64,000 bases of DNA from Macrostomum lignano. Its lineage: Eukaryota. The stretch is taken from the NCBI GenBank assembly GCA_002269645.1, contig NIVC01001363.1, positions 186,001 through 250,000 of the forward strand, in the 5' to 3' direction. The stretch's first letter is position 1; every line of letters begins with the position of its first letter. Shown one piece after another: positions 47,701-50,700 of the stretch. Below the pieces are notes generated by a model. That model was given only the letters and a program-made list of their open reading frames with translations. It made no database searches and was not told where the DNA came from. A program made the position numbers and the translations under genes.

Positions 47701-50700
47701 AATGTCTACAATGGAACCAAACACTGTTCTCAAAGGATGGTCAGCTAGAACCGGATGAGAAAGTGGGGGAGGCACAACTTTACCGAACGAAGAACTCAGC
47801 AAACGGACGATATGTACACTTTTCGGAAGCATGGACTAACTACATGACACGAAACAGTTACCTAATCAGGAATATTCCATTCTACCACAATCCTTTTGAA
47901 AAATGGAGTCGCTACAACTGCAATTAAGTGACTGCCGATACAGCAAAGGATGGTGTCCAACGCCGATACTGCGGAATGAGGAACTATACAGCTTACCGTT
48001 GAGTCCAACATATCATCAAGACTATCGATGGCAAATTATACGCAGAGGCGACTCACGATATGAAGAACCATCTAAGTCACGACAATACTTCTTCGCGTGG
48101 GAAGTTGAGCCGGAAATTGACTGCAAGCTTCAAAAGTATCACACAGTTGAAGGAGGTCTACTGTCAAACACGTTTTTGGCAAAGTCAGGAGACTTGGCAC
48201 TGACGTTTCAAAAGAAACCAGTCGAGCAAAAACTGAAATGCAAGGATACAGACAAGACACTATTCATCTCGGAACAAGAGATACCAGTCTACGTAAAAGA
48301 AGACGACAAACAAACCTTTCTGGCGATCATCAACGGAACGTATCAACAGCAGGAACAACAGAACAGACGACGACGAGACATCGAACGTCCCAAACTGGTG
48401 TCAAACCGACTACTGTCAGCAAAGATAACGGCTTTGGATCACAATCTACACAACCAGTTAAACCACTTGCATCGAACACTGGTCCAGCTAACTTGCAAAA
48501 TGCACGCAATCAACTTAAATTATGCCAGACAAAACTACTATGTCAACCCTACGATGACTTTTCGTAAAATCACCGGAATGACGAACGTTTTGGCAGTTCC
48601 AATATACGAGCATCTGTTGATATACAAGTGCACGCCGATACAGCACTTTAACATCTTGCCGTCGAACACGTCAACAACCTGCTACGACAAGCCAAGGATT
48701 GAAGCGTTCTACGAAGGAAAACGAATTCAGGATTCTTGGACACGGTACACAACATCATAGTTGGCACCGCAATACCGAGACCCTGCACCACGGCAGCAAA
48801 CTACTATCAACTGGACAATGCACTACACGTCATCAAAACAACTGGAACGACAGCAAACATCACAGAACCGGAAGTAATCGTCGACGAAAACTACGACATG
48901 GAGGATTTGAAAATCCGATTCAACAGAACGAAGTATACGCCATTCGCCGATATCCAACTTGACGAGATAACACCAGGATGGACGATCAACGACTTCTTGC
49001 AAGCGTTCATCACCCAACGCAAGATGATTCACCAGCTGTTCACAAGAAAGGACAAAGGAACCGAGACAGGAAGATTTCCCGTCCTTGTTTCAATGGACAG
49101 CGCCATCAAATCATTTTGGACAAACAGCTTCTGGGAGCTGCTCAATGGAAGAGGCAGTCTCTATCAAGGATTCATCTTCTACGGTGCTTGCATTGTGTGG
49201 ATTGTCACGGCAATCTTCATCATTTCGTCGATCGTACGGTGCTTCAGTCAAACTTGTCCAAGAGCTAAGAAGACAGTTAATGCCATAATGCAAAGAACGA
49301 CAACGGAAGGCGACAACAGTTTAGAACTAACAGAAACTGCACATCGTGAGGTTCAAGGGCAACCGACACTAGCAACGCGGCTATATCCATCGATTCCGAC
49401 AACACCAACGGCACCAAGAATACAACCACCCAATTATCAAGCAGAACAGCAAGACCCAAAATGGCCAGAGAACTACGTATGTACTCTACACGCCGAAATT
49501 GGCAAAGCAATGGCTCAAGTGGTAATCAACAATCTACCATGTCGAGCGCTACTCGACTCCGGCAGCTCCATCACAGTTATATCAAAACAACTGTGCAACA
49601 AGCTACGACTTGCTCTACGGCCAGCAACAATCGCAGTTGCAGGAGCAGGAGGACATTCGCTAAACATTCTGGGAAAAGCCGACATTGATTTAAGAATCGC
49701 TAATAAACATTTGACAGTTCCAACGTACGTCATCGACAGACTCCCAAACCAGGACGTTATTGTTGGCATCGACACGTTCAAGCAGCTTCGACTACCATTG
49801 ACCTTCGACTTCAATAAGCAAACGTTCAAGATCGACTCGGAAGAACAACCATTGATCAACCAGATCCGAGTACTACCAAAAGTAACATTGCAACAAGATG
49901 TCTTCATCCAACCGGAGAGCGCCTGCTGGATAAAGGCAAAGGCAACTAACGCAACGGAGGAAGCAATGATATTCGACCCAAACAGAAGAGTCACGGCTAA
50001 ACACCAAATTATAATGCCTACGGCACTAGTGCTGGTTGCAAAAGATAAACAGCTGCCAGTACAAATCTTCAACCCGAACACAGAAACGGTTCATCTACGA
50101 CAAGGAATGTGCATCGGTCATCTCAACACCCAAGCATCGGTTATGCTGATTGAGCAAGCGACTCCACGACTAACAGAGGAAGAATTTCAAAAGAAGATCA
50201 ATTTGGATGACAGCCCGATTACGGAACAGCAAAAGAGGAAAGTTCGACAGCTGTTGTGGAAGTACAACGACGCTTTCTGCCACCATGACTACGACATCGG
50301 ACGAGCTAAGGACATCAAACAGGAAATCAAACTTCTGCCGCACACGGAACCAATTCAGTGCAAACCGTACCCGATCGCCAAGCATCTGCAACAGCACTTC
50401 GATGAGATTATCGACAAAATGCTGAAACACGGCATCATCAGCAAAGCCATTTCAGCATACTCATCACCATGTCTCTTGGTGCAAAAGAAGGAGACTAACG
50501 AAAGACGACTCGTATGTGACTTCAGACTACTGAACAAGTACATACCGACGGATCAGCAAAGCCTACCGAAGATCTCCGAACTACTAGCAAAGCTCAACAC
50601 GGCAAAATTGTTCACAGTGTTCGACCTACGTCATGGATTTTGGCAAATTGAAATCGAGAAAGAATCACGACAGTACACGGCTTTTAAAACCTACAATGGA

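Follow-up and report, generated by a model that had tools for sequence, protein, structure and literature searches.

The stretch of DNA analysed here (the window; 64,000 nucleotides of Macrostomum lignano contig NIVC01001363.1, positions 186,001 to 250,000) contains a retroelement that spans positions 43934-54637 between two long terminal repeats (LTRs) and carries Ty3/gypsy hallmarks, namely TG...CA ends, a target-site duplication and a primer-binding site (PBS). The 5' LTR (43934-45009) and the 3' LTR (53562-54637), both on the forward strand as are the PBS, the Gag, Env and Pol parts and the tail motifs described below, are 99.8% identical with 2 mismatches and no gaps, and thus the insertion is young. 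An identical 4-mer lies outside both LTRs, at 43930-43933 on the left and directly after the 3' LTR at 54638-54641. The PBS directly after the 5' LTR (45012-45023) is a 12-mer beginning with TGG, and it is identical to the 12-nt PBS of a flatworm gB-type errantivirus in the catalogue of Chary and Hayashi (eLife 2026, PMC13524379). The element lies inside a 12-bp tandem array and adjoins a 24-bp array (43300-43930, 54600-56636). Elsewhere in the window, a long frame at 5159-7285 (+) encodes a protein kinase domain with RCC1 repeats after it, which we take to be NEK8/9-like.

Within the element, a Gag frame (45582-46724, first Met near 45705) reaches the start of a zinc knuckle (zf-CCHC, weak, E 0.027) and is left within it; the whole CCHC knuckle is present in other copies of the same family, here called family A. 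An acidic Gag-Env linker follows (46474-47369), spread across shifted frames in the studied copy and with a net charge of -27 in another family A copy. A hydrophobic stretch (47370-47435), a putative internal signal/anchor helix, opens Env, whose predicted gB-type (class III) ectodomain (47436-49167) is disrupted and divided among three overlapping frames (46803-47927, 47900-48760 and 48703-53019) and includes a furin-like RRRR site (48365-48376). The Env transmembrane helix (49168-49236; hydropathy 2.4 over 19 residues) is followed by a predicted cytosolic tail, or protease leader, of about 90 residues (49237-49515) ending in a conserved WP (49456-49476). Next come an aspartyl protease (49516-49785; PF13650, E 1.6e-10; PF13975, E 5e-09), reverse transcriptase (RT) and RNase H (50482-51552; PF00078, PF17919 and PF17917) and, up to the stop, an integrase with zinc finger, core and C-terminal part (51829-53019; PF17921 and PF00665). 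The env region lies between gag and pol (gag-env-pol order), and the Pol order protease-RT-RNase H-integrase together with the CCHC knuckle of Gag fits Ty3/gypsy (Metaviridae). A short, Cys-rich, RING-like frame (53086-53343 (+); weak PF05290, E 0.018) also lies downstream of the integrase stop, ahead of the 3' LTR.

In the studied copy, frame 48703-53019 (1,438 aa) holds the last third of Env, the hydrophobic helix, the 90-residue tail, protease, RT, RNase H and integrase, and Gag, linker, signal/anchor helix and Env ectodomain are distributed over five overlapping frames upstream. Because these upstream frames are shifted, the copy as assembled would be unable to make the polyprotein. The genome holds 112 matches, 14 of which lie in stop-free frames of at least 2,400 residues, and the long stop-free frames of other copies run from CCHC knuckle through helix, furin-like site, second helix and tail to protease and RT. 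Contigs from four sequencing runs cover the element, a kind of coverage that cannot show expression. A GT..AG joint within the LTR (44469-44756) occurs in contigs of three runs, from three studies, that we guess to be RNA, and not in X17; it is a weak hint that LTR transcripts may be spliced. No GT-AG joint skipping env was present among the 15 of 22 joints listed for the sequencing-run contigs.

The class of Env was assessed by profile and fold searches. Profile matches were obtained to MHV68 gB (E 2.3e-06) and, below the cut-off, to PF24664 (E 1.8e-05). When the Env model was searched with Foldseek, the top rows were all herpesvirus gB (E 3e-15), yet with a TM score of about 0.2 and a low-confidence model (pLDDT 47), and in a VIA fold search with the same low-confidence model the top eight rows were gB or rabies G (Z 5.6-7.5). 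On these profiles and the fold search with a low-confidence model, we assign the predicted Env to the gB-type, class III fusogens. In two related families of the genome (C and D; L047, L049), two basic cleavage-like sites of Env are separated by a long, mucin-like insert rich in Thr.

Translation of 49381-49437 (+) gave the 19-residue peptide described in the original prediction, and its location after the Env transmembrane helix and ahead of the protease was confirmed within frame 48703-53019. The peptide contains LYPSI (49381-49395), an ALIX-type phi-YPx[LI] motif, PTAP (49405-49416), a TSG101-type motif, and PPNY (49426-49437), a NEDD4/WW-type PPxY motif, so named after the late-domain patterns P[TS]AP, YPXnL-like and PPxY that they match. 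The tyrosine motif had been likened to the textbook form ending in Leu; it is present and ends in Ile (YPxI). ALIX-family proteins accept YPx[LI], as in PalA/PacC. The open-access literature search yielded no paper on this acceptance. The three motifs start 48, 56 and 63 residues past the end of the hydrophobic helix and 58, 50 and 43 residues ahead of the catalytic Asp of the protease. The family A tail is low-complexity and rich in Pro, Thr and Gln. When the 90-residue tail was shuffled 200,000 times with its composition kept, single motif classes arose in 0.5-3.4% of the shuffles and all three together in none, and across the six-frame translation of the window (127,996 residues) it is the only triple of its kind.

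All three motifs were found in 37 of the 38 family A copies read, the exception (L035) having PPAP. The expectation that the motifs should be better conserved than the linker beside them was borne out in 20 family A haplotypes: among the 10 core sites of the motifs 1 showed variation, compared with 31 among the 61 remaining sites of the tail (Fisher p=0.019), and silent variation occurred at 6 of the 10 core sites. In PPxY, 7 codons occur at the x position and encode N, T, I or G, with P, P and Y unchanged. The tail motifs look to be under selection.

Recurrence in distant relatives was likewise observed. Eight Env-bearing families were found in the genome; they form three deep lineages, between which Env is 22-33% identical, and each family has at least one motif in its tail. 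P[TS]AP is present in seven of the eight tails (shuffle mean 0.25) and phi-YPx[LI] in six (shuffle mean 0.07). PPxY occurs in the tail of family A only (shuffle mean 0.48, not significant), and the complete three-motif cluster is not supported as a general feature. Family A combines phi-YPxI, PTAP and PPxY; B1 and B2 have PTAP and IYPKI, C and E have PSAP, D has PSAP and LYPTL, G has PSAP and IYPTI, and F has LYPKI only, without P[TS]AP. Exceptions among individual copies are one with PNAP in place of P[TS]AP (L042) and two in which PSAP was lost by deletion, with a stop present (L054, L055); in several frame-broken copies (L062-L065) no motif is present in the frame read. Apart from the motifs, the middle parts of the tails are alignable mainly within close pairs of families. 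The order of motifs differs as well, YP preceding PTAP in family A, and PTAP preceding YP, eight residues on, in the sister family B and the distant family G. This reversal suggests that PTAP may have been lost and regained, and such changes of order point to turnover, which linear motifs that work at any position should undergo. The WP dipeptide just ahead of the protease is shared by all eight families and many outside matches, and could mark a cleavage or folding boundary.

For comparison, 27 loci were picked from 150 protease matches, giving 14 Env-less families; in one representative of each, no motif was present within 130 residues ahead of the protease in three frames (0/14), a set that is unmatched in composition to the Env-bearing tails and in which one member (L102) may be a cellular gene. 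On the Gag side, P[TS]AP, YPxL and PPxY were not found in family A Gag, and in families A, B1, C, D, F and G the start predicted for Gag lacks Met-Gly. The linker from zinc knuckle to Env signal helix has PPxY or PSAP in B1, B2, C, D and E (L073, L074, L075, L076, L077), the PPxY shuffle rates being 8-10% for B1 and C, and Gag may contribute to budding in these families. A complementarity in which a Gag-side PPxY stands in where the tail has none applied to B1, B2, C and E and not to D, F and G, and was not established.

We also searched 1.84 billion representative proteins with the Env profile and obtained 296 matches. Among the matches listed, one is from a springtail and many have Gag or protease domains. 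Tails were taken from the best 150 of the 296; after removal of 59 proteins in which no helix was called, 5 whose tails were shorter than 40 residues, 3 belonging to the families of this genome and 2 with the helix called at the protease, 81 outside tails remained, which rest on automatic helix calls, some of which may be wrong. In these 81 tails, P[TS]AP was found in 11 (0.79 in shuffles), phi-YPx[LI] in 7 (0.55) and PPxY in 10 (1.59), so that each class was 6-14 times above shuffles. Any motif was present in 22 (3.0 in shuffles) and two classes in 6. Of the 19 patterns used as controls, 18 were flat, and the remaining one, [TS]APP, overlaps P[TS]APP. Motif density in the tails was 9-21 times that in the rest of the same proteins, and the enrichment was seen both in the 40 tails joined to a protease and in the 41 without an in-frame protease. 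One outside match (P0030) has an overlapping PTAPPTY; it was too short for the Env tree, which comprises 86 rows. On this tree the motif label is clustered, changing 16 times compared with 23 times when shuffled, and thus the 81 tails are not independent. The starred branches nevertheless force at least 10 label changes, with sister lineages carrying different classes. No motif occurs in 59 of the 81 tails, and hence many lineages must exit another way.

Candidate partners are encoded by the host genome, which contains a TSG101 UEV domain, ALIX, HRS and many HECT domains, among which a NEDD4-type ligase may lie. One exon of host TSG101 matches UniRef entries labelled Macrostomum lignano at 100% identity, and this flatworm is taken as the host. 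Host ALIX keeps FYxxL in its V domain and has a PSAP of its own after this domain, which suggests that the host UEV pocket may still be in use. The host UEV keeps T92, M95, N69 and V141. Among the six proline-pocket residues of TSG101 named in the accessible text of PMC11670305 it keeps four; at two aromatic positions, Tyr63 and Phe142 of the human protein are replaced by His and Val, respectively, the same in all three genomic copies read (L085:1450-1866). The UEV homologue search returned only 3 proteins, too few to judge these substitutions, and the single match from another species keeps Tyr and Phe. An in-frame PSAP was absent from three HRS loci that cover part of the gene.

Altogether, the comparative sequence data lend good support to the inference that the motifs of the Env tail are binding sites for ESCRT adaptors, and we consider it fairly likely that they serve as ESCRT-recruiting late domains in enveloped budding. 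In the proposed mechanism, a single Gag-Env-Pol polyprotein would cross the membrane twice, a topology predicted from hydropathy. Gag would lie on the cytosolic side, tethered through the internal signal/anchor helix. The ectodomain of gB type would be luminal, and the chain would return to the cytosol after helix two, placing tail, protease, RT and integrase there. In the cytosol, the P[TS]AP of the tail would bind host TSG101 (ESCRT-I), phi-YPx[LI] would bind ALIX and, in family A, PPxY a NEDD4-type ligase. If particles are produced at all, the recruited ESCRT-III/VPS4 would sever the necks of enveloped particles as these bud out of the cytosol, either through the plasma membrane or into the lumen of endosomes. 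The protease would then free Pol near the conserved WP, and since the motifs lie upstream of WP they should remain with Env after cleavage. The original prediction had also proposed that the motifs could couple Pol packaging to the envelope. This part found no support, as Pol is tied to Env by the shared open frame, and P[TS]AP is also present in 7 of the 41 outside tails without an in-frame protease (best 150 of the 296 matches); Pol would be packaged because it is fused to Env and not by the motifs. The pairing of these motifs with their partners, their independence of position and their combined use are established, as set out in the accessible part of PMC7995964. The same source records that HSV-1 proteins bear motifs for ALIX and TSG101 without depending on either factor, which counts against the budding reading.

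The same ESCRT and NEDD4 partners might instead act in traffic or turnover of Env, by ubiquitin-dependent sorting to multivesicular bodies (MVBs), by surface down-regulation or by providing a meeting place for assembly, and not in scission. All comparative results fit this explanation equally well, and the absence of motifs from Env-less elements discriminates neither way. Cellular membrane proteins use such motifs in endocytosis and HSV gB is ubiquitylated and sorted to MVBs (accessible part of PMC7995964), and ZAM takes endosome and exosome routes (accessible part of PMC3383448). However, three adjacent partner types that are swapped between lineages form the pattern of viral late domains, and we regard a role confined to traffic or turnover as unlikely. 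It is quite improbable, in our estimate, that the tyrosine motif is an ordinary YxxPhi signal for AP-1/2/3 and that the proline motifs bind SH3, EVH1 or non-ligase WW domains or pace the release of the protease. YPSI, YPKI and YPTL each fit YxxPhi, and retroviral Env tails use this signal (accessible part of PMC1592117). Against this, in the 81 tails from the best 150 of the 296 matches YxxPhi without Pro at +1 was not enriched (34 tails vs 32.4 in shuffles), whereas YPxPhi was (15 vs 3.9); YxPPhi (3 vs 3.9), dileucine (9 vs 8.7) and NPxY were not enriched either, and P[TS]GP, P[TS]SP, P[TS]EP and permutations were flat. Chance matches in a Pro/Thr-rich linker, retained only through recent common descent, are already disfavoured and seem very improbable, for although the tail is low-complexity, family A copies are 85-100% identical to one another and PPxY alone could be chance outside family A, the shuffles of the tail never gave the triple, and motifs recur across lineages with such divergent Env and exceed composition-keeping shuffles in outside proteins.

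Late-domain use of the Env tail, the reading we prefer, can be set against known systems. GAG-ENV-POL errantiviruses with an HSV/gB-type Env have been reported from Nematoda, Bryozoa and Platyhelminthes in the accessible text of PMC13524379, which cites Sacco et al. 2022 for them. Like these elements, family A has this gene order, an Env flanked by a signal/anchor and a transmembrane helix, and many near-identical copies, and it is probably already in that catalogue; the Env of the flatworm element sharing the PBS was absent among the 30 of 125 places listed. The terms late domain, PTAP, ESCRT, budding, cytoplasmic and polyprotein have no matches in the main text of PMC13524379 as accessible, nor do late domain and PTAP in seven of its supplements. 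No description of late-domain motifs in such elements was found in the open-access literature. Retroviral and filoviral late domains (PTAP and YPXnL in HIV p6, EIAV p9, PTAPPEY in Ebola, three partners in MLV) comprise the same three classes, clustered and combined, but they are located in Gag or matrix, whereas those of the element precede the protease, on the cytosolic tail of the predicted fusogen. Bluetongue virus NS3, a membrane glycoprotein, likewise has late motifs (PSAP and PPXY) on a non-capsid protein; unlike Env of the element, it is non-structural, not a fusogen and outside any Gag-Pol polyprotein. Drosophila gypsy and ZAM are also Env-bearing Ty3/gypsy elements, but their Env is of the F type and is encoded by an ORF of its own downstream of pol (gag-pol-env order). 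The accessible part of a 2012 review (PMC3383448) describes gypsy Gag as lacking myristoylation and compares its tyrosine motif with that of EIAV; the same review states that errantivirus use of ESCRT is not known. The element class, the gag-env-pol architecture and the motif classes are each already known, and their combination on the Env tail was not found in the open-access literature.

More broadly, and only tentatively, with our judgement falling just short of an even balance, we propose Env-driven ESCRT exit for Gag-Env-Pol Ty3/gypsy elements across invertebrates, in which enveloped particles would be built from one polyprotein that spans the membrane twice, the signal helix of the fusogen would stand in for the myristoylated matrix in anchoring Gag to the membrane, and interchangeable TSG101, ALIX and NEDD4 late domains on the cytosolic tail of the fusogen would have been repeatedly gained and reshuffled. 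The transmission mechanisms of most errantiviruses remain elusive, as noted in the accessible text of the 2026 survey (PMC13524379). The conserved late-domain motifs of the Env tail name host partners and make the question of errantivirus exit testable. If the proposal is true, it would provide the first sequence-level mechanism for the exit of gB-type errantiviruses from the cell, and it would mean that invertebrate retroelements outside Retroviridae employ the ESCRT code of three motifs and that this code can be moved from Gag to the glycoprotein.
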